Position numbers and translations under genes: made by a program
NCBI GenBank assembly: GCA_948444795.1
Contig: CAOJUX010000005.1
Coordinates: 338-32,337, forward strand
Length of the DNA stretch: 32,000 nt
Source: an uncultured Erysipelotrichaceae bacterium
GTDB lineage: Bacteria; Bacillota_I; Bacilli_A; RF39; UBA660
Reading direction: 5' to 3'
In this document: piece after piece, positions 5,352-20,740 of the stretch
Position numbering within the stretch: position 1 is the first letter of the stretch
How the letters are laid out: each line of letters opens with the position of its first letter
The notes under the pieces: generated by a model
Told to the model about the DNA's origin: nothing
Databases searched by the model: none
Seen by the model: the letters and a program-made list of their open reading frames with translations, nothing else

Positions 5352-6917
5352 TTATCTATCAAAAGTTGTTCTAATTATCGCTTCTGCTACTTTCATTCCA
5401 TCCATAGCAGATGTCATAATACCTCCAGCATATCCAGCTCCCTCACCAGCAGGATAAACACCCTCAATATTAGATACAAATTTATCATTTCTTAGAATTC
5501 TAATTGGTGATGAAGTTCTAGATTCCACACCTAAAATAATAGCATCGTCATTATTAAAGCCTATAAGTTTAGTGCCAAAATACTCAATAGCTTCTTTTAT
5601 ATCTTCATTTATAAACTCTGGAAAAATTAAATTAACATTAGCATTTTTATATGAACCACAAATATCTAAATTTTTAACAGTTTCTAACACTTCACCTTTT
5701 TTATAATCACTATATCTCATACAAGGAATAAATCCCTCTCCTACAAGATAAGCCTTTCTCTCTAACTTTTTTTGAAACTCTACCCCATCAAATAAAGATA
5801 ATCCATAATCATTTTCATTAACTGTCACAACAATAGCACTATTACTGTAATTTGCATCTCTTTTATAATTACTCATTCCATTTATAGAAAGCTCACCTAA
5901 CTTATTACTTGCATTAACAACATATCCCCCAGGACACATGCAAAAAGAATACACACCTCTATTATCCTTACTTTTATAAGTTAATTTATAACTAGCAGAA
6001 GGTAAAAAATCACTAAAACTACCATACATTGCTTTATTAATAAGAGCTTTTTTATGCATTACTCTAACACCAATCGCAAAAGGTTTTGACTTCATTTCTA
6101 TTCCTACATTATCAAGAAGTTTAAAAGTATCTCTCGCACTATGACCAATAGCAAGTATTAAACTATCACACTCTATTTCTTCCTCTTGATTAACTATAAT
6201 TTTATCAAGTTTATTATTCTTAATTAAAATATCAGTTAGACAAGTAGAAAATTTAAATTCACCACCTAAAGATATAATGTAATTTCTCATATTTTTAACA
6301 CAAGCACACAAATTATCAGTACCAATATGTGGATTTTGTAAAAATAATATATCTTCTGGTGCTCCAAATTTAACAAATGTCTCTAAAACAAATCTATTTC
6401 TATAACATTTATCATTAACTCCTGTATTTAACTTTCCATCTGAAAAAGTTCCAGCTCCGCCTTCTCCAAAAAGAACATTATCTTCTTCATTTAAAATATT
6501 TTCTTGCCAAAATCTATTAACATCTTTAAACCTTTCGTCTATTTCTTTTCCCCGTTCTATTATAATCGGTTTTAACCCAGAAAGAGCTAATAAATAAGCC
6601 GAAAAAAGACCAGCTGGACCACTACCAACAACTATCACTCTTTTATTACTTTTACAATATTTTAAAATATTGTATTTTGTATTTTTATACTCTAATATAT
6701 CTTTATCTTTTCTAATTTTTCCTTCATTTTTAACATCTACTAAAACTTCTAAAACATATAATATATTGCTCTTAATTCTTGCATCAATCGATTTTTTTAA
6801 AAGTTTAAAACCAAATAAATCATTCAAATCAATATTAAGTTTTTTTACTATTTTCTTTTTTATATTATCATCACTATATTTTAAAATAGATATTTTTATA
6901 TTCTTTACTCTTAACAT
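5352..6917 (-). CDS. FAD-dependent protein (COG2509-type NAD(P)/FAD oxidoreductase)
   Basis: VIVVGSGPAGLFSAYLLA is a dinucleotide-binding GxGxxG motif. The C-terminal YPAGEGAGYAGGI is typical of this family. Confidence 0.8.
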   Translation of the reverse strand: MLRVKNIKISILKYSDDNIKKKIVKKLNIDLNDLFGFKLLKKSIDARIKSNILYVLEVLVDVKNEGKIRKDKDILEYKNTKYNILKYCKSNKRVIVVGSGPAGLFSAYLLALSGLKPIIIERGKEIDERFKDVNRFWQENILNEEDNVLFGEGGAGTFSDGKLNTGVNDKCYRNRFVLETFVKFGAPEDILFLQNPHIGTDNLCACVKNMRNYIISLGGEFKFSTCLTDILIKNNKLDKIIVNQEEEIECDSLILAIGHSARDTFKLLDNVGIEMKSKPFAIGVRVMHKKALINKAMYGSFSDFLPSASYKLTYKSKDNRGVYSFCMCPGGYVVNASNKLGELSINGMSNYKRDANYSNSAIVVTVNENDYGLSLFDGVEFQKKLERKAYLVGEGFIPCMRYSDYKKGEVLETVKNLDICGSYKNANVNLIFPEFINEDIKEAIEYFGTKLIGFNNDDAIILGVESRTSSPIRILRNDKFVSNIEGVYPAGEGAGYAGGIMTSAMDGMKVAEAIIRTTFDR

Positions 6918-13137: not shown

Positions 13138-14301
13138 TTATTTTTTCCTACTATTTAAGAGTTCTTTATCCACATAAATAACTCTTCCTCCTTTAGGATT
13201 TATTCTTTCATTACCAAATACTATCCATATTATATGCATTTCTAAATCTGGCATATCAGCATCTCCATCCGTAAATATAATTTTATTAAGAACATTGGCC
13301 GAAAAAGCTCTAACTGCCACATTAAAATCAGTACCACCACCACCGCGAAATTCCATATTTCCAATGTCTTCTTCATTATTTATATTATGAAATCCATAAA
13401 ACTTCGTATCAAAGCATCCAACTTTTAGTTTTGAACTTCCTAAAATGTTTTTACATTCAATTAAAAAATTTCTCAAAAGATCTTCGTTAATTGACCCACT
13501 CGTATCTAATACTATTTCGGTTTCTGAAAAAGGTTGTGCCTCTAAGGAGGGGGTTACAACTCCATCTTCTATATAAGCATTTTCAAACGACCAATCATAA
13601 TCATATTTAATATTTTCTTGTAAAATTCTATTCCAATTTAATAACGCTGAAGCAGTGCCAATACTCTTAACAATTCTTTTATCACTATCTACATCCTGTC
13701 CTAGTGATTTACTAGTAAGATTATTTTGAAAATCATTTAACTGTTGCTTATATATTTGTTTATTCAACTTAAAAACTTCTTTTTCACTTATCCCTTTTTC
13801 ATTCATAGTATCATTAGCTGATTTTTCAATTATATTTTTTGTGACTTCTTTCCATAAAGAATGATTATCAACTTCCCCATATTTTTCTTTAAATTCTTTC
13901 TCCCCAATCTTTTGTTTTTCCTCTAAAAGCATATCATAAAGCTCTTCCGCATCATAATTAATGGCTAAAGGTATATCAACAACACCCTTTATTATTGTAA
14001 GCCCATCATTTTTTAAATTAGCATTTATTACTCCATCAGTTGCTATATTCCAAACTTCCACATCTCGATCATTTTTTCTATTTAAATGATTAAAGGCAAC
14101 ATGACTAACCTCATAAGCAACTAAAAAAACTTGTTCGCTAGAAGTAAGGGCTCCTAAAAAATCCGGATTATAAAAAACATGTTTACCATCAGTTGCAGCG
14201 GTTTTATAAGAACAATCAGAAATAAATTCTAAATTAGCAATTATACTTCCAAAGAGAGGATATTTTATCATAACCCTTCTTATAATCAAATCTATTTGCA
14301 C
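13138..14301 (-). CDS. VWA-domain protein with an N-terminal metallopeptidase-like domain (DUF2201-type partner of MoxR-like ATPases)
   Basis: N-terminal PLFGSI...TDGKHVFYNPDF...YEVSHVAFNH is a peptidase-like motif with Tyr in place of the first His. The C-terminus carries VLDTSGSI, a MIDAS DxSxS motif. Confidence 0.8.
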   Translation of the reverse strand: MQIDLIIRRVMIKYPLFGSIIANLEFISDCSYKTAATDGKHVFYNPDFLGALTSSEQVFLVAYEVSHVAFNHLNRKNDRDVEVWNIATDGVINANLKNDGLTIIKGVVDIPLAINYDAEELYDMLLEEKQKIGEKEFKEKYGEVDNHSLWKEVTKNIIEKSANDTMNEKGISEKEVFKLNKQIYKQQLNDFQNNLTSKSLGQDVDSDKRIVKSIGTASALLNWNRILQENIKYDYDWSFENAYIEDGVVTPSLEAQPFSETEIVLDTSGSINEDLLRNFLIECKNILGSSKLKVGCFDTKFYGFHNINNEEDIGNMEFRGGGGTDFNVAVRAFSANVLNKIIFTDGDADMPDLEMHIIWIVFGNERINPKGGRVIYVDKELLNSRKK

Positions 14302-14310
14302 GCCAAACCT

Positions 14311-14712
14311 CTATATATGTACTAATAAAGAATAAACTTCTTCATTAATCTTATTTTTTTCTAAATCTTTACAAGTAACAATTATCAAACAATTATCTGG
14401 TATATCAAAAGTACTAATTTTTTTATATTTTAATATTTCAATAAATTTTTTTTGTTCTAAAAGAGGAATTTCATTAATATTTTCAATTATTAAAATAGCT
14501 TTATCTTTTATACTTTTTGAAATTAATTCTCTATACCATAAAGGAGGCCAAAAATTGGTATCTTCATAATGTCCATTTAATAATTCTCTTGGTATATCTG
14601 CTTTTAAAACAACAGCATTTTTAAAAGAACTAGTTACTATATTATCTACTAACAATGGTGAAATATTTGCTTTAAAATAATTATCAAACATTTTTAATCT
14701 TTTACTATTCAT
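14311..14712 (-). CDS. Hypothetical protein between the ATPase and VWA genes
   Basis: Its ATG overlaps the ATPase stop (TAATG at 14714-10) and it ends 9 nt before the VWA gene, so translational coupling in an operon is likely. Confidence 0.55.
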   Translation of the reverse strand: MNSKRLKMFDNYFKANISPLLVDNIVTSSFKNAVVLKADIPRELLNGHYEDTNFWPPLWYRELISKSIKDKAILIIENINEIPLLEQKKFIEILKYKKISTFDIPDNCLIIVTCKDLEKNKINEEVYSLLVHI

Positions 14713-16286
14713 TATCTTGACTCCCCTCTCTTCATTTCTTCTTCCATTTCTATCTCAACTAAATACTCTAATCTTTCCTTATCACCATGTGCCCACATCG
14801 ATTCAAACGCTGCCCTTGATTCTGATCCAACCAATTTCATAAAATCTCTTACTAATCTAAAGTTTTCAAAATCAACTGAAGATAATCCTGCTGCAGTTAC
14901 AAACTTTTGAGCGGAGTTCATATTTAAATCTGTTTCAGTATAATTATGATTTATAACATCATCAACTGTTATTACTCCATACCTTACAAATTCTTTAAAA
15001 TCTACTGTTAACTCTTCTCCAACAAGAGCTCTAAGCATATCAGGTCTTCTTGTCTTATAAAGTACTTTAGAAGCCATTTCCCATTTTCTAGGATCAGCAT
15101 TAGGTTTATTACCTGTATATTTTGTTCTTAAAACATCAATGCCAGAAAAATACTTATAAGAAATATAAGCATATATTGCAGGATGAATTTTAAACTCAGT
15201 TCCATCATCTTCATAATCTAATCTCTCATAATTCTCTTTTGGTGTTACTGCCCATTTAAGCCAGCTACTTACTGTCGTTTCAATATAAACATGAGCAAAT
15301 CTATTATAAAGTGGTTCAGAAAGTTTATTAGCAGACATAGAATCAGAAAGTTCATTTCCTGCGGCAACAATTCTCGCATTACTAGGTAATTTCCATTTCC
15401 CATCAATCTCTTTATCTAAAACAATATTAAAAGCCTGTCCCTGAACCGAAGGAAGTGCATTTGTAAGCTCATCAAAGAAAATAATATGAATCTTATCAGG
15501 CTCAGCTTCACATCTTTTAAGTACTTTTTGATACCAAGTTGGAGGAATATCAATCATCTCTTTAGTTTCTGAATTATATACACTTTTACCATTTAAACTA
15601 GAAGGAGTAGCATTTGCCATATAAATTATTTCACAATCTGGATCAAGTTCTTTAACTCTTGCTGATTTACCATCACTAGATTTACCATGCAAAAAAACAG
15701 GAATATTACTCTCAATAGCTCCTTTTATAATATCTTCTTCACTTACATTATCAAAATTAAAATCATATACATTTTTACTATTTATAGTACTATTTATAGT
15801 ATTATCTATTGTTATCTCACTTGGAATTATAGCTTTTGCTAGATACTTATCCATAAACTTTTTTATATTAGTATTATCAAAATCGCAGGTATAATCTACT
15901 TCATTAAATTGAACACCTGAAAAAATTATTTTCTTAGCTAAAACTATTTTTTTAACACTATCAACTATCCAAGTTATTGGTTCAACCAAGACAAAATAAG
16001 GTCTTCCCTCTTCTATCCTTTGACCATTTGACAAAGTTTCTCCCGCACTATTAGTATCTGCTACTATTCGAATATATTTATTACCATTATATTCATATTC
16101 TGAAAAAAATCTTTCTTTAAAAGATTCATTTGTATTACTGGTAGAAACTGAATCAGCTGGATACTCTTTACCAGTTTTATTTAAATTGCCAATCACATAT
16201 AAATTTTCTAGAATATTTTCTAGTTCTACAGAAGCAACAGTTTGTGGAAACTCTCCATAATCCTCTTCAAAAACTCCCCCTCTCAC
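14712..16286 (-). CDS. MoxR/AAA_5-like AAA+ ATPase; C-terminal 524 codons of the DGR target frame
   Basis: Walker A is LHGKSSDGKSA, Walker B is IIFFDELTNA, sensor is AAGNE, plus LYNRF. It is in the same frame as ORF 16383..16616 and is separated from it by only one TAG. Confidence 0.8.
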   Translation of the reverse strand: MRGGVFEEDYGEFPQTVASVELENILENLYVIGNLNKTGKEYPADSVSTSNTNESFKERFFSEYEYNGNKYIRIVADTNSAGETLSNGQRIEEGRPYFVLVEPITWIVDSVKKIVLAKKIIFSGVQFNEVDYTCDFDNTNIKKFMDKYLAKAIIPSEITIDNTINSTINSKNVYDFNFDNVSEEDIIKGAIESNIPVFLHGKSSDGKSARVKELDPDCEIIYMANATPSSLNGKSVYNSETKEMIDIPPTWYQKVLKRCEAEPDKIHIIFFDELTNALPSVQGQAFNIVLDKEIDGKWKLPSNARIVAAGNELSDSMSANKLSEPLYNRFAHVYIETTVSSWLKWAVTPKENYERLDYEDDGTEFKIHPAIYAYISYKYFSGIDVLRTKYTGNKPNADPRKWEMASKVLYKTRRPDMLRALVGEELTVDFKEFVRYGVITVDDVINHNYTETDLNMNSAQKFVTAAGLSSVDFENFRLVRDFMKLVGSESRAAFESMWAHGDKERLEYLVEIEMEEEMKRGESR

Positions 16287-16327
16287 TCCGTTCGAGGAGA
16301 TACTTTGGATTAAAGAGTACGGTAAAG

Positions 16328-16405
16328 CTGGGCGGGAACCAACATCACAATTAGTAACATCGCCCCAGTCATCATTACCACTCTAACTAACAGCGCGGGC
16401 ACAAT
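16328..16405 (-). repeat. DGR variable repeat (VR)
   Basis: It is 69/78 identical to 17896-17973. The nine differences are at 16349, 16350, 16361, 16363, 16364, 16370, 16373, 16381 and 16387. Eight of them are opposite TR adenines in the minus sense. Confidence 0.9.
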
Positions 16406-16616
16406 TTGAATTATAAGGTGTTTTTGTCCACCAATAACCAGTTCTATTTTTTAATTCATTATCATTATTTACATGAAAACTATCAGATACATAACCACCT
16501 AACAAAATTAAAAAATCAGTTATAGCAGCTTTTGTTCCATATATATTCATTATTTCTGATTTATTATCACCAAAAATTTGGTTAACATCTAAAAAAGTAA
16601 AGTTCATATCCATCAC
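16383..16616 (-). CDS. N-terminal part of the DGR target: ligand-binding-like variable domain, terminated by an in-frame TAG inside the VR
   Basis: FTFLDVNQIF...TKAAITDFLILLGGYV...GYWWTKTPYNSNCARAVS*, continued after the TAG by SGNDDWGDVTNCDVGSRPAL. This resembles the FLLS..E / YWLRSP / GVRPAL lectin-like domains known as DGR targets. The best RBS (AGGTGA) favours the ATG at 16607. Confidence 0.7.
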   Translation of the reverse strand: MMDMNFTFLDVNQIFGDNKSEIMNIYGTKAAITDFLILLGGYVSDSFHVNNDNELKNRTGYWWTKTPYNSNCARAVS

Positions 16617-17664: not shown

Positions 17665-17895
17665 TATAATTTACCTCCAAATAAAATAAACACCCCTTTA
17701 AACATCCAAAAAGTTTTAATAAACTTGTTGTTTGTGTGAGTGTTTTTATATATTCTTCTATCGCATTTTAAATATTTATTTTAGCGATTAGAAAAGAAGA
17801 AAATTCCTTCACCTTACAATACTGATATATTTATCTTAAAATATATTTCTCTGATTTGTTTTCTGAATTTTTATATAATTCCTTCAAAAGTGAAT
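17665..17895 (-). ncRNA. TR-to-RT spacer, expected to be part of the DGR template RNA
   Basis: A 231-nt non-coding gap lies between the TR 3' end and the RT start. In characterised DGRs the spacer RNA is needed for priming. The role here is inferred. Confidence 0.4.
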
Positions 17896-17973
17896 CTGGG
17901 CGGGAACCAACATCACGTTTAGTAACATTGTTCCAGTTATTATTACCATTCTAATTAACAGCGCGGGCACAAT
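17896..17973 (-). repeat. DGR template repeat (TR)
   Basis: Minus sense reads attgtgcccgcgctgttaattagaatggtaataataactggaacaatgttactaaacgtgatgttggttcccgcccag. It has 22 adenines and six in-frame AAY codons, and lies between the Avd-like ORF and the RT. Confidence 0.9.
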
Positions 17974-18026: not shown

Positions 18027-18611
18027 CTAATTGTTTTTGTTAAATCTTTTATCATCACTTTTTTTCCAAGAGGTAATTAAACTAATAGCTTCGGCAAGTT
18101 GTATTGATATTTGTTTATATTGTTTTTTTAAAATACAACCAGAACTTTCTGCTATCATTGCTACATAACCTAATAATTTTAATTTAACTATAGCTTCTTT
18201 TTGAAAATCTTCTCTTTTTACTTTATTACTATTAGAATCTAATCTTATAAAATTTGCATTTAAAAGACATTCTAATGTATCTAAACAATAATTTTGCATT
18301 CTATTTACAAATACTCCTCTAAATCTTTTAGGAGAATTTTCTGTTACCGCAATTACATAAGCGCATAATTTTTTTACAATTGTAATAACTATCAAGTCAT
18401 TAGAATTTTGCGGTATTTTATTAATGATTTTTTGCTCTTTTTCTTCTTCTAAAATTATCTTTTTTACAATATCTTCATTAAATTTATTATTATTAGCTAT
18501 CGCAAATTCTTTCTTTATTGCTAGTACATCCTCTGTATTGTTTACTGAATCAAGATCAAGATTAATTTCTTTTGGTATTTTTAAATTGTTTGTTCTATTA
18601 ACCTGTAACAC
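18027..18611 (-). CDS. Avd-like accessory protein (four-helix-bundle type) with an N-terminal extension; start uncertain
   Basis: It occupies the position immediately 5' of the TR. The C-terminal ~120 aa are helical and end in ...QLAEAISLITSWKKS, reminiscent of Avd / 23S-IVS four-helix-bundle proteins. GTG start without a good RBS. Confidence 0.5.
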   Translation of the reverse strand: MLQVNRTNNLKIPKEINLDLDSVNNTEDVLAIKKEFAIANNNKFNEDIVKKIILEEEKEQKIINKIPQNSNDLIVITIVKKLCAYVIAVTENSPKRFRGVFVNRMQNYCLDTLECLLNANFIRLDSNSNKVKREDFQKEAIVKLKLLGYVAMIAESSGCILKKQYKQISIQLAEAISLITSWKKSDDKRFNKNN

Positions 18612-18747: not shown

Positions 18748-19224
18748 ATGAATAATGAATATGCTCTTAATTTTATAATTCCTACAGGGCCATCAGGAGA
18801 TAATGGTGTAATAGAACCTAGTATTAGTTTGGTTTATAATGACATGACAACAAGTGGAACAGTTTCAATTAATAGAAGTACAATATATCCTAAAGATTCA
18901 ACTGTCTTTACAGTTCAAAATAATCAGTTATTATTTAATAGTCGTGGTAAATTTGAATATAATATATCTGGTATAATAAAAAAACAAAACTCAGATTCAA
19001 CTACGAACTTAGTCTTAAGAACAAGAAATAATTCTGGTATTACTAATAATTTATTCGTATTTAATGTTAATCAAGGGGAAGATGAAATTTATTTTTTCCA
19101 AACAAAAATTGGCGAATACTCTGGATCTCAATCTGTTAATTTAATATTTAATAAAAATGCTGATTCAAGTTCGAAATTAGAAAATGTTGAACTAACTATA
19201 AAAAAATTATATGATTGGGAATAA
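18748..19224 (+). CDS. Paralog 1 of a small beta-rich protein family (BclA-C-terminal / C1q-TNF-like suspected)
   Basis: N-terminal EYALNFIIPTGPSGDNG, an internal G.FEY.ISG, YFFQTK, and C-terminal LTIKKL. These are shared with the next three ORFs. Confidence 0.6.
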   Translation: MNNEYALNFIIPTGPSGDNGVIEPSISLVYNDMTTSGTVSINRSTIYPKDSTVFTVQNNQLLFNSRGKFEYNISGIIKKQNSDSTTNLVLRTRNNSGITNNLFVFNVNQGEDEIYFFQTKIGEYSGSQSVNLIFNKNADSSSKLENVELTIKKLYDWE

Positions 19225-19227
19225 AAA

Positions 19228-19689
19228 ATGGAAGAAAATATAGAATATGTAATAGATTTTATTTTACCTAAAGGAAAACCAGGATATGGTTCCTTTGAAG
19301 CATTAACATATATAACATTTCAAAATCAGATAAATAATGGTTCTTTAACTAGTTTAAAAGCATTAAAAATACCACGAAATACTAATATATTTAACGTTAC
19401 TAATAATATTATAATAGAACATACTGGCTGTTATATATTTACAATAAGCGGATTATTAAAAGAATCTGGAAATACTAACCCATTATTTAATATACAACTA
19501 GAAAATAATGGTATATCAGAAAATCTCATAACAGTAAATTTAAATCTAGAACAAAAATTATATTTTTCACAAACTAAAGTTAAGAATTGCCAAAAAAATA
19601 CTATAATAAAACTAACTTTACAAAAAGCAAATAATTCTGATGCATCTTTAGAAGGAGCAAATTTAATAATTAAAAAATTACCCTTATAG
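19228..19689 (+). CDS. Paralog 2 of the same family
   Basis: EYVIDFILPKGKPGYG, GCYIFTISG, YFSQTK, LIIKKL. It starts 3 nt after paralog 1. Confidence 0.6.
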   Translation: MEENIEYVIDFILPKGKPGYGSFEALTYITFQNQINNGSLTSLKALKIPRNTNIFNVTNNIIIEHTGCYIFTISGLLKESGNTNPLFNIQLENNGISENLITVNLNLEQKLYFSQTKVKNCQKNTIIKLTLQKANNSDASLEGANLIIKKLPL

Positions 19690-19702
19690 AAAAGAGGAAA
19701 AA

Positions 19703-20155
19703 ATGGAATATTCACTCAATTTTGTTATTCCAGAAGGATTAAGAGGAGAATCAGCTATTGAAGGAATAGCATATCTTGAATACCTTTCAAAACAGTCCCA
19801 AGGTGAAGTTGATATAAACTCTTCTAATTCATTTACCAATAATACAACTATTTTTTTTATCTATACAAATAAAATTTTATTAAAAAAAGAAGGATTATAT
19901 GAATTTATATTTAGTGGTAAAATATTTACATCAATTAATTCAGATTATTCTTTAAAACTAATAAGTGAGAATAATGGTAATGTTCAAGAAATTATAGATT
20001 TATCATTAGAACAAAGTATTAATGAAATTTACTTTTCAAAAATAAAAATCTTAAATTTATCATCAGATAATAATATTTCAATAATTTTTGATCCTAAAAA
20101 CAATAAAATTATTAATTTAGAAAATACAACTTTATTAATTAAGAAATTCAAATAA
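19703..20155 (+). CDS. Paralog 3 of the same family
   Basis: EYSLNFVIPEGLRGES, GLYEFIFSG, YFSKIK, LLIKKF. Confidence 0.6.
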   Translation: MEYSLNFVIPEGLRGESAIEGIAYLEYLSKQSQGEVDINSSNSFTNNTTIFFIYTNKILLKKEGLYEFIFSGKIFTSINSDYSLKLISENNGNVQEIIDLSLEQSINEIYFSKIKILNLSSDNNISIIFDPKNNKIINLENTTLLIKKFK

Positions 20156-20210
20156 ATTATTTTTGACTATCTTTTTATAAGTTCATTGTAAATAAAGAAC
20201 CTTTATAATA

Positions 20211-20243
20211 AAAAAAGGACATATTAATTCTTGTCCCTTTAAA
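20211..20243. terminator. Bidirectional terminator between convergent paralogs 3 and 4
   Basis: aaaaaaaGGACAtattaattctTGTCCcttt, flanked by an A-run and a T-run. Confidence 0.5.
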
Positions 20244-20254
20244 GTTATTAATCT

Positions 20255-20740
20255 TTAATTTAATTTTTTTATAAGTACATTTACATGATCTGTTTCTACC
20301 GTTGGAGTATTATAAAAACCTAAACTTACACATAAATTAATCGTTTGATCAAATTCAAAAACACCAGTTGATGAAAAATAGGTATATTGATTATCTCCTA
20401 ATAGTTCAATATCCATATCAGGTAAAGTAGTTGTTGCACTACTTGTTATAGCAAGTAAATGAAGAACAGCCTGACCAGTCGTTCCTGGTTTTTTTAAATA
20501 ACCAGAATATGTTATTTCGTATAAACCAGGACCCATTTGAACTTCTTGCCCAATAATTGTATAATTTGAAGAATTAGTAGGATAAATTTTGTTTTTTTCA
20601 ATATCTAAATCTCCTTGAATATTTTTTTTATTCATGTAGCTAATAAAGCAGATATTAGGCTCTGCAGTTGGGCCAGTTGGGCCTGTAGTTCCACAAGGAA
20701 TCACAAAATCTAAAACATATTCATTTGATTTTTCTGCCAT
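20255..20740 (-). CDS. Paralog 4 of the same family, with a GPTGPT collagen-like remnant
   Basis: EYVLDFVIPCGTTGPTGPTAEP, GLYEITYSG, YFSSTG, VLIKKL. Confidence 0.6.
   Translation of the reverse strand: MAEKSNEYVLDFVIPCGTTGPTGPTAEPNICFISYMNKKNIQGDLDIEKNKIYPTNSSNYTIIGQEVQMGPGLYEITYSGYLKKPGTTGQAVLHLLAITSSATTTLPDMDIELLGDNQYTYFSSTGVFEFDQTINLCVSLGFYNTPTVETDHVNVLIKKLN

Follow-up and report, generated by a model that had tools for sequence, protein, structure and literature searches.

In-frame stop codons in the templates of diversity-generating retroelements with a MoxR-type ATPase target

A retroelement and its interrupted target gene

We analysed a 32,000-nucleotide stretch of DNA (the window; contig CAOJUX010000005.1, from an uncultured Erysipelotrichaceae bacterium), and found that its minus strand encodes a diversity-generating retroelement (DGR) in complete form and the target operon of this element: an Avd-like accessory gene, a template repeat (TR), a reverse transcriptase (RT) gene, a target gene that contains the variable repeat (VR), a gene for a 133-residue protein and a DUF2201 gene (Table 1). 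The target frame runs over 634 codons and is broken once, by the TAG at 16385-16383, behind which 556 codons are open. An earlier note on this DNA had proposed that two open reading frames (ORFs), 16616..16383 (77 amino acids, aa) and 16286..14712 (524 aa), lie in one frame with this TAG as their sole separator, and that the same TAG is present in the VR and in the TR (17953-17951); both proposals hold. A single stop in 634 codons at 24.8% G+C, matched by the identical triplet in the template, is not a random pattern.

Table 1. Features of the retroelement and its target operon in the window
Feature	Position	Strand	Basis or remark
Avd-like accessory gene (194 aa)	18027..18611	-	Profile matches and conserved place; ends in TAG
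Template repeat (TR), 78 nt	17896..17973	-	Ungapped repeat of the VR; 21 adenines in its last 67 nt
In-frame TAG of the TR, context AAT TAG AAT	17951..17953	-	Read from the sequence
Conserved sequence directly 3' of the TR (ATTCACTTTTGAAG)	17882..17895	-	Point where TR and VR diverge
Intact reverse transcriptase gene of the DGR, 337 aa	16651..17664	-	RVT_1, PADLOC RT, YMDD
Variable repeat (VR)	16328..16405	-	Differs from the TR at eight adenines and by one C>T
TR-templated in-frame TAG in the VR	16383..16385	-	Flanked by VR-specific bases 16387 and 16381
5' target piece: 77 codons of DUF6273-like (C-type-lectin-like) domain, ended by TAG	16383..16616	-	
3' target piece: 556 open codons, rest of variable domain, middle region and AAA_5 (MoxR-like) ATPase	14712..16382	-	
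Conserved partner gene, 133 aa, no family match	14311..14712	-	
DUF2201 protein (metallopeptidase-like N-terminal and VWA-like domains), conserved partner	13138..14301	-	

The VR and TR form an ungapped 78-nucleotide (nt) pair, which a repeat search extended with flanks to 84 nt at 87% identity. They differ at nine positions, eight of them TR adenines (seven A>G and one A>T) and one a non-adenine C>T change at 16349. Eight differences lie downstream of the TAG and one upstream (16387), which corrects the earlier count of seven out of nine downstream. The adenine changes sit at codon positions 1 and 2, with the exception of 16350. Both repeats end in the G+C-rich sequence GTTGGTTCCCGCCCAG, which resembles an initiation of mutagenic homing (IMH) site, and then diverge into CTTTACC after the VR and ATTCACT after the TR. 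A motif taken from the TR 3' flank, CCNGAT[TC]NNCTTTTGAAG, located the TR in 19 loci including the window, and in metagenome contigs; the flank is putatively part of the DGR RNA. A search for further VRs within the window found none. About 30 nt downstream of the VR (window 16270-16300), ATCTCCTCGAACGGA, DNA that encodes S-S-N-G, is nearly identical across loci, synonymous sites included, and the proteins of the loci that share it are only ~60% identical overall. This stretch may be a cis element for target recognition.

The RT matches Pfam RVT_1 (E=1.4e-14) and the PADLOC RT model (E=1.5e-35), contains the YMDD motif and is 55-73% identical to the RTs at the equivalent place in 36 related loci. 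The Avd-like protein matches Pfam bAvd (E=3.2e-6; 28 bits, where the cut-off is 40) and NCBIfam DivGenRetAVD (E=2.4e-6), in both cases below the cut-off but across nearly the whole profile, and related loci have a gene of ~190-200 aa at the equivalent position. RTs of the DGR clade carry the signature [I/L]GxxxSQ in motif 4 (PMC3521204); in the window RT this motif, read by eye, is LPLGSQSNQWFA, or LGxxxNQ, in which Asn replaces Ser and Gln is retained. Judged by its sequence, the element is a DGR in every feature that can be tested other than this LGxxxNQ in place of LGxxxSQ.

A protein search with the 634-aa read-through product found more than 2,800 homologues. Among the 120 matches listed, nearly all are single proteins of ~645 aa, with 98-100% query coverage and 57-64% identity, and they are composed of a DUF6273-like domain at the N-terminus, a middle region and an ATPase of the AAA_5 (MoxR-like) type. 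The fusion of variable domain and ATPase that the earlier note had envisaged is thus the usual state, and the split is the exception. The same note had held that the variable domain runs across the stop, and the homologues do align unbroken through ...ARxV-x-[x]-x-G...W...RPALPY. The residue at the TAG position is hypervariable among them (F, L, S, Y, T, N, D, K, E, G, I, R and others). At the domain level, residues 52-98 of the read-through protein match Pfam PF19789 (DUF6273) weakly (E=0.0061, 16.9 bits, cut-off 23.5), six close homologues carry a precomputed PF19789 match, and the match to AAA_5 (PF07728) is borderline (E=1.3e-4, 22.5 bits against a cut-off of 22). An AlphaFold2 model of the read-through protein, built from a 24-sequence alignment, was poor (predicted local distance difference test score, pLDDT, 46; below 35 in the variable domain), and a sequence search of the PDB with the family profile gave no match. 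No signal peptide or membrane segment was seen in the target, by eye only; the protein is probably cytoplasmic, and its likely role is that of a diversified sensor.

The downstream piece, annotated as 524 aa from a GTG at 16286, is unlikely to be a gene of its own. Its homologues are fused to the variable domain, the GTG corresponds to the Val codon of a conserved NGVRG motif, no convincing ribosome-binding site precedes it (by eye), and the next in-frame ATG lies ~150 codons further on.

Template stops and the alleles opposite them in related loci

A scan of species-representative genomes returned 78 related loci (numbered L below, with proteins numbered P), nearly all from gut metagenome-assembled genomes (MAGs) and mostly labelled Bacilli, Tenericutes or Mollicutes. 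An RT homologue is present in 36 of the fetched loci, nearly always just upstream of the target, and the gene order Avd-like gene, TR, RT, target, small gene (~130 aa in most), DUF2201 is conserved. The family appears, from these sequences, to be a DGR of gut Bacilli and Tenericutes-like bacteria that diversifies the DUF6273-like domain at the N-terminus of a MoxR-type ATPase. For counts of template stops we used an unbiased set of 24 TR-VR loci that had been found through the ATPase or the TR flank, regardless of the state of the VR. A metagenome scan with the TR-flank pattern added only eight contigs, and a scan of IMG/VR one locus.

In-frame TAA, TAG or TGA codons occur in 13 of the 24 TRs of the unbiased set (11 of 18 distinct TRs; hand tally). 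When all fetched loci are counted, the codon that is TAG in the window is a stop in 12 TRs, the window included: TAA in L004, L006, L008, L013, L027, L080, L092, L093, L095 and L097, and TAG in L020 and the window. Most other TRs have AAA, AAG or AAT there, and L046 has TGG. Template stops also occupy a conserved Trp codon six codons later (TGA in L004, L008, L092 and L097; TAA in L005, L009, L091 and L093), the position two codons past this Trp codon (TAA in L017, L086 and L090) and the position one codon before the window's codon (TAA in L046). In-frame stops thus seem to be carried routinely at diversified codons by the templates of this DGR family. In the target-protein tree, the loci with TAA or TAG at the window's codon are scattered across a clade in which identity to the window protein is just 55-63%. 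This spread excludes a recent, private knock-out of the TR, which the earlier note had offered as an alternative; its other suggestion, a sequencing error, is contradicted by recurrence of the pattern in many independent assemblies.

The DGRs of the related loci are active. Across the 24 TR-VR pairs, changes have hit 246 of 573 TR adenines (43%), compared with 29 of 1,035 other bases (2.8%), and relatives with one TR carry different VR alleles (L008/L097/L098, L005/L100, L017/L086/L090 and L048/L049/L059). Opposite template stops, the VRs read sense codons in some loci (TTA in L004 and L009; TGG in L004, L020 and L027; TGC in L008; TCA in L046; TAC in L091; TTT in L097) and stop codons in others (TAG in the window; TAA in L005; TGA in L008, L017, L086 and L090). 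The conversion of TAG to a sense codon by a change of its adenine, as foreseen in the earlier note, is seen in L020, where TAG in the TR faces TGG in the VR; TAA in the TR similarly faces TTA, TTT or TGG in relatives. Interrupted alleles that correspond to faithful or stop-to-stop copying are present in L005, L008, L017, L086, L090, L092, L093, L095 and L097. Within the unbiased set, a VR stop at a TR-stop codon was found in 5 of the 13 loci with a template stop, against 0 of the 11 loci without one. A neutral estimate from the observed rates puts stop outcomes at ~55% per TAA or TAG codon, and selection against stop alleles therefore looks weak.

The rate of change depends on sequence context. 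Adenines before G were changed in only 6 of 56 cases (11%), four of them to G, compared with 44-53% in other contexts. Within a G-N-R-N-W motif, the Arg codon (AGA or AGG) never has its first adenine changed (0 of 23, in 26 TR-VR pairs). The rarity of changes before G may reflect a context bias of the RT, as has been reported for the Bordetella enzyme (bioRxiv 10.1101/2025.03.24.644984), or selection for Arg codons.

In three VRs the T of the template stop is itself changed opposite TAA, giving AGA in L006 (~6217), CCG in L013 (~1642) and GGG in L098; non-adenine changes are otherwise rare (~0.7% outside L004 and L046). It is possible that the TR read AAA when these VRs were written, with a recurrent A>T change in the template that perhaps came from self-mutagenesis, that the RT misread U, or that point mutations rescued the frame. 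Three loci (L038, L039 and L046) have tandem arrays of three or four paralogous target genes; those of L046 are at 6226, 9862 and 11829, and its three VRs share one sequence, which departs from the TR at 10 adenines and six other bases.

Among relatives, interrupted and intact alleles coexist within one species or strain set, which is the ON/OFF behaviour predicted in the earlier note; for the species of the window, no second sample turned up in the collections searched. L008 and L097 are 99.8% identical over 8.2 kb, with identical TRs (TAA...TGA), and both targets are interrupted, the two VR codons reading TGA/TGC in L008 and TTT/TGA in L097. L098 and L099, whose contigs do not include the TR, read GGG/TGG and encode an intact 645-aa protein (P0074) that is 100% identical to the ATPase part of L008 and L097. 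Likewise, the interrupted allele of L005 (VR TAA) has an intact counterpart in L100 (TGT, P0068) with 99.2% identity in the ATPase part, and that of L092 (VR TAG) has one in P0070, with 100% identity in the ATPase part.

Interrupted targets are also common among public protein sequences. A profile of N-terminal fragments retrieved 554 short proteins, and we counted fragment ends in their 122 listed cluster representatives. Of these, 19 end at the window's codon, three one codon earlier, 25 at the Trp codon and seven at an AAA (Lys) codon. Ends produced by contig edges would scatter, so this clustering is meaningful. The contigs of four fragments share the layout of the window, a short ORF followed by an ORF of ~540 aa, and in all four a TR stop lies behind each VR stop at the window's codon and the Trp codon: L092 (TR TAA and TGA, VR TAG and TGG), L093 (TR TAA and TAA, VR TAG and TAG), L095 (TR TAA, VR TAA) and L097 (TR TAA and TGA, VR TTT and TGA, plus an AAA > TGA change). 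In L082 the window's codon is TAG as well, and an open frame follows it.

Other short fragments, about 40 of the 122, are VR frameshifts (P0131-P0240), with tails such as ...VGLAQLYLTLQSNQSPRTE or WWGSPSFTVLINL, and 1-nt deletions were seen directly in the VRs of L027:6250-6300 and L080:3955-4044. Indels made by the RT could account for these frameshifts, which are very frequent in public assemblies, as could errors in assembling a hypervariable region. The fragments P0216, P0238 and P0242, with tails ...RPDSLL... and ...RPDLLLKRL, are either VR/TR assembly chimeras or real recombinants.

The genes that accompany the target are conserved with it. A gene of ~128-133 aa follows the target in most related loci examined (the ORF at this place in L020 has 163 aa), and the 133-aa protein of the window had no Pfam, NCBIfam or PADLOC match. 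The DUF2201 gene, two genes downstream of the target (Pfam DUF2201_N, E=2.1e-26; DUF2201, VWA-like, E=2.6e-13), keeps its position in related loci. PADLOC and NCBIfam gave no match for the target, the 133-aa partner or the DUF2201 protein, no VMAP domain was detected, and the PADLOC scan recognised no defence-system model. The 133-aa gene ends in TAG (14313-14311) and the DUF2201 gene begins 9 nt later in the same frame, an arrangement that mimics a second split gene; this is a coincidence of frame between two separate genes, which do not share a frame in L004. On the other side of the DGR, 18748-20740 contains four small genes that are paralogues of one another (150-161 aa; three plus-strand, one minus-strand). 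Their products have N-termini resembling MNNEYALNFIIPTGPSG, and the two that were tested had no Pfam match.

Explanations for the interrupted allele

We consider it probable that the TAG of the window is a nonsense codon that the DGR wrote into its own target, and that it marks an OFF state the DGR could rewrite. The comparative evidence supports this mechanism, each step of which, as set out in the earlier note, has a parallel among relatives. In this mechanism the RT would either misread the adenines of the template stop or copy them unchanged. Misreading could turn TAG into TGG, TCG or TTG, and TAA into codons for Phe, Leu, Ser, Tyr, Cys or Trp, and the product would be an intact sensor-ATPase fusion of ~72 kDa. 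A faithful copy, or a change to another stop, would cut the gene inside the variable domain. The last retrohoming event in the window would have changed eight of the 21 counted TR adenines and left that of the TAG as it was, and the cut within the lectin-like domain would leave an ATPase with neither a sensor nor a start signal. The adenine of TAG stands before G, and most events would be expected to re-install the stop, with Trp (TGG) as the likely main escape, as in L020. With the Avd-like gene, the TR and the RT all intact, the frame could be restored in a later round of retrohoming. We infer that the window allele is reversible and the cut gene non-functional; any benefit from the arrangement is hypothetical.

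Several observations weigh against this reading. The one non-adenine change of the window VR, at 16349 (TR 17917), converts CGT (Arg) in the TR to TGT (Cys), whereas all the related TR and VR nucleotide sequences that we compared have CGN there; Cys is also found at this position in a few homologous proteins (P0004 and P0066). The change could mean that selection is relaxed on a gene that is already dead. Exact look-ups of the window proteins returned a single contig of 51 kb and no second sample of the species, so that neither an ON allele nor heterogeneity among reads is visible for this genome, and the MAG consensus of a hypervariable region can be a mosaic of several alleles. Finally, with so few changes at adenines before G, a TAG template may be more of a lock than a switch.

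The strongest rival explanation, which we nevertheless regard as unlikely, is that the window target is a dead end: a pseudogene into which the TAG was copied by chance, no longer under selection, in an element that is decaying. The change at the Arg codon fits such a history, and decay has occurred among relatives. L079/L080 combine TAA with a 1-nt deletion, the L027 VR is frameshifted, as are those represented by the ~40 short fragments described above, and truncated RT remnants are present in L002, L032, L034, L037, L060, L067 and L076. In L015 (5900-6100) a TR/VR hybrid, joined to what remains of the target, comes straight after the Avd-like gene; the RT has been lost together with the 5' end of the target, apparently through recombination between TR and VR. 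In the window, however, the RT, the Avd-like gene and the TR are all full length, the 78 nt of the repeat contain a single non-adenine mismatch, and the 556 codons behind the TAG have stayed open despite the A+T-rich genome. Moreover, the related strains with stop alleles have intact sister alleles.

The stop could instead be decoded, such that read-through or suppression yields some full-length protein and the template stops tune its amount. UGA is reportedly read as Trp at low efficiency in Bacillus subtilis, and TGA is common among the VR stops. The loci L017 (6220-6290), L086 (1597-1690) and L090 (8309-8380), ~96% identical and with the same TR TAA, have three different VR alleles, all of which read TGA, for which we estimate a chance of ~0.14 per event; in the unbiased set, four of the five VR stops derived from TR TAA are TGA (L008, L017, L086 and L090), and that of L005 stays TAA. 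A leaky TGA may be favoured in L017, L086 and L090, or the codon may not be rewritten independently in each event. The window, however, carries TAG and not TGA. The 41 long open frames of the window end in TAA (27), TGA (7) and TAG (7, among them that of the Avd-like gene), and no tRNA genes were found within the window; we rejected reassignment of TAG and a TAG suppressor on these grounds. Assignment of TGA to Trp (code 4) in the relatives that have TGA in the VR was rejected likewise, since TGA terminates their targets near codon 640 and the counted Trp codons are TGG. The long frames of the relatives are unbroken for up to 819 codons, and their freedom from internal TGA follows from how they were constructed. 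Both TGA and TAG are thus genuine stops in the related genomes, and we give read-through in the window a low probability.

It is very improbable that the VR TAG is an assembly artefact, with a VR consensus pieced together from population variants or from TR reads and a stop that no actual molecule carries. The sequence does come from a metagenome-type assembly of a hypervariable region, and in the chimeric public products P0216, P0238 and P0242 the TR 3' flank is attached to the N-terminal domain. Against an artefact, VR-specific bases stand 2 nt to either side of the TAG (16387 and 16381), so the VR TAG was not assembled from TR reads, and similar alleles occur in many independent assemblies and strains. 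A change of genetic code that makes TAG a sense codon (for Gln, Leu or pyrrolysine) in this organism can be dismissed almost entirely, as it has nothing in its favour other than the in-frame TAG itself, TAG terminates window frames at lengths known from relatives, no other window gene is split by TAG and the window holds no suppressor tRNA.

Relation to known systems and meaning

It is a design rule of DGRs that template codons take the form AAY, so that hypermutation never truncates the target. The DGR literature describes templates as avoiding nonsense outcomes (PMC12875486, PMC10907252, PMC4372165, bioRxiv 10.1101/2025.03.24.644984 and 10.1101/2024.11.15.621889), and we found no description of a TR-encoded in-frame stop in the DGR literature searched, a search that mostly did not cover subscription journals. 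This agrees with the statement of the earlier note that templates normally avoid stops and that it knew of no described case. In other respects the element resembles the canonical DGRs of Bordetella phage BPP-1 (Mtd), Treponema (TvpA), Bacteroides and phage: it has an RT, an Avd-like gene, adenine-specific differences between TR and VR, an identical G+C-rich 3' repeat end followed by divergence, a VR within a putatively C-type-lectin-like domain and a TR dominated by AAY codons. Unlike them, it has an in-frame stop in the TR (up to two in relatives) together with many AAA and AAG codons, and its VR lies near the 5' end of a long gene and not at the 3' end, so that the stop removes ~88% of the protein.

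The target and its partners recall the MoxR-ATPase/vWA conflict systems (Dore et al. 2024, PMC10907252; Kaur et al. 2020, as cited there), in which a DGR is likewise combined with a MoxR-like AAA ATPase, a VWA protein and a small third partner. The window locus differs in that the ATPase itself carries the variable domain as an N-terminal fusion, its VWA partner belongs to the DUF2201 proteins and has a metallopeptidase-like domain, no VMAP domain or PADLOC family was detected, and the hosts are gut Bacilli and not Chromatiales or cyanobacteria. DUF6273 is known as a C-type-lectin-like DGR target in phages, where it is sometimes N-terminal (PMC10743442, PMC11792537). The tentaclins (PMC10743442) share with the window target a DUF6273-like domain at the N-terminus and a VR near the 5' end of the gene. 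The phage targets, in tentaclins and in Faecalibacterium prophages (PMC11792537), are receptor-binding proteins, whereas that of the window is a chromosomal ATPase fusion; a text search for 'stop codon' in these two papers found nothing on TR stops.

Two further comparisons concern the stop itself. Phase-variable contingency loci, which rely on slipped-strand repeats or invertible promoters, similarly combine local hypermutation with reversible ON and OFF alleles in a population. Here, by contrast, the change would be made by template-directed reverse transcription, each event would rewrite the binding site, and the nonsense codon of the OFF allele would come from the template. In engineered DGR reporters (Guo et al. 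2011, PMC3240598; PMC12875486), the adenines of a stop codon in the TR are mutagenised and transferred to the target, as proposed here; those are laboratory constructs, whereas the present stops are natural and conserved in the template. What is new is thus the template stops, and the rest is a known kind of element.

A further step, which we put forward tentatively and hold to be the less likely outcome, is that the template stops are a selected feature and not a tolerated cost. The DGR would then diversify a cytoplasmic MoxR-type sensor and also switch it ON or OFF, or dim it. Retrohoming would in most cases shut the gene down; only rarely would an event open the frame, and it would then supply a new binding site as well. 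A leaky TGA would be kept in some lineages for low expression. The T of the template stops could possibly have arisen through occasional mutation by the element of its own template.

Recent work argues that RT biases have evolved to avoid stops; the family described here breaks the design rule of AAY templates, with template stops conserved across deeply diverged lineages. A large survey discarded DGRs with premature stops (PMC5758913), and surveys of this kind would miss or misjudge such elements. Genes annotated as split that lie beside an RT may be live targets. For engineered DGRs, a template stop offers a design idea, that of a built-in filter for mutagenised copies. For the bacteria themselves, the arrangement would be a natural case of reversible gene inactivation by reverse transcription, in which phase variation is coupled to diversification.

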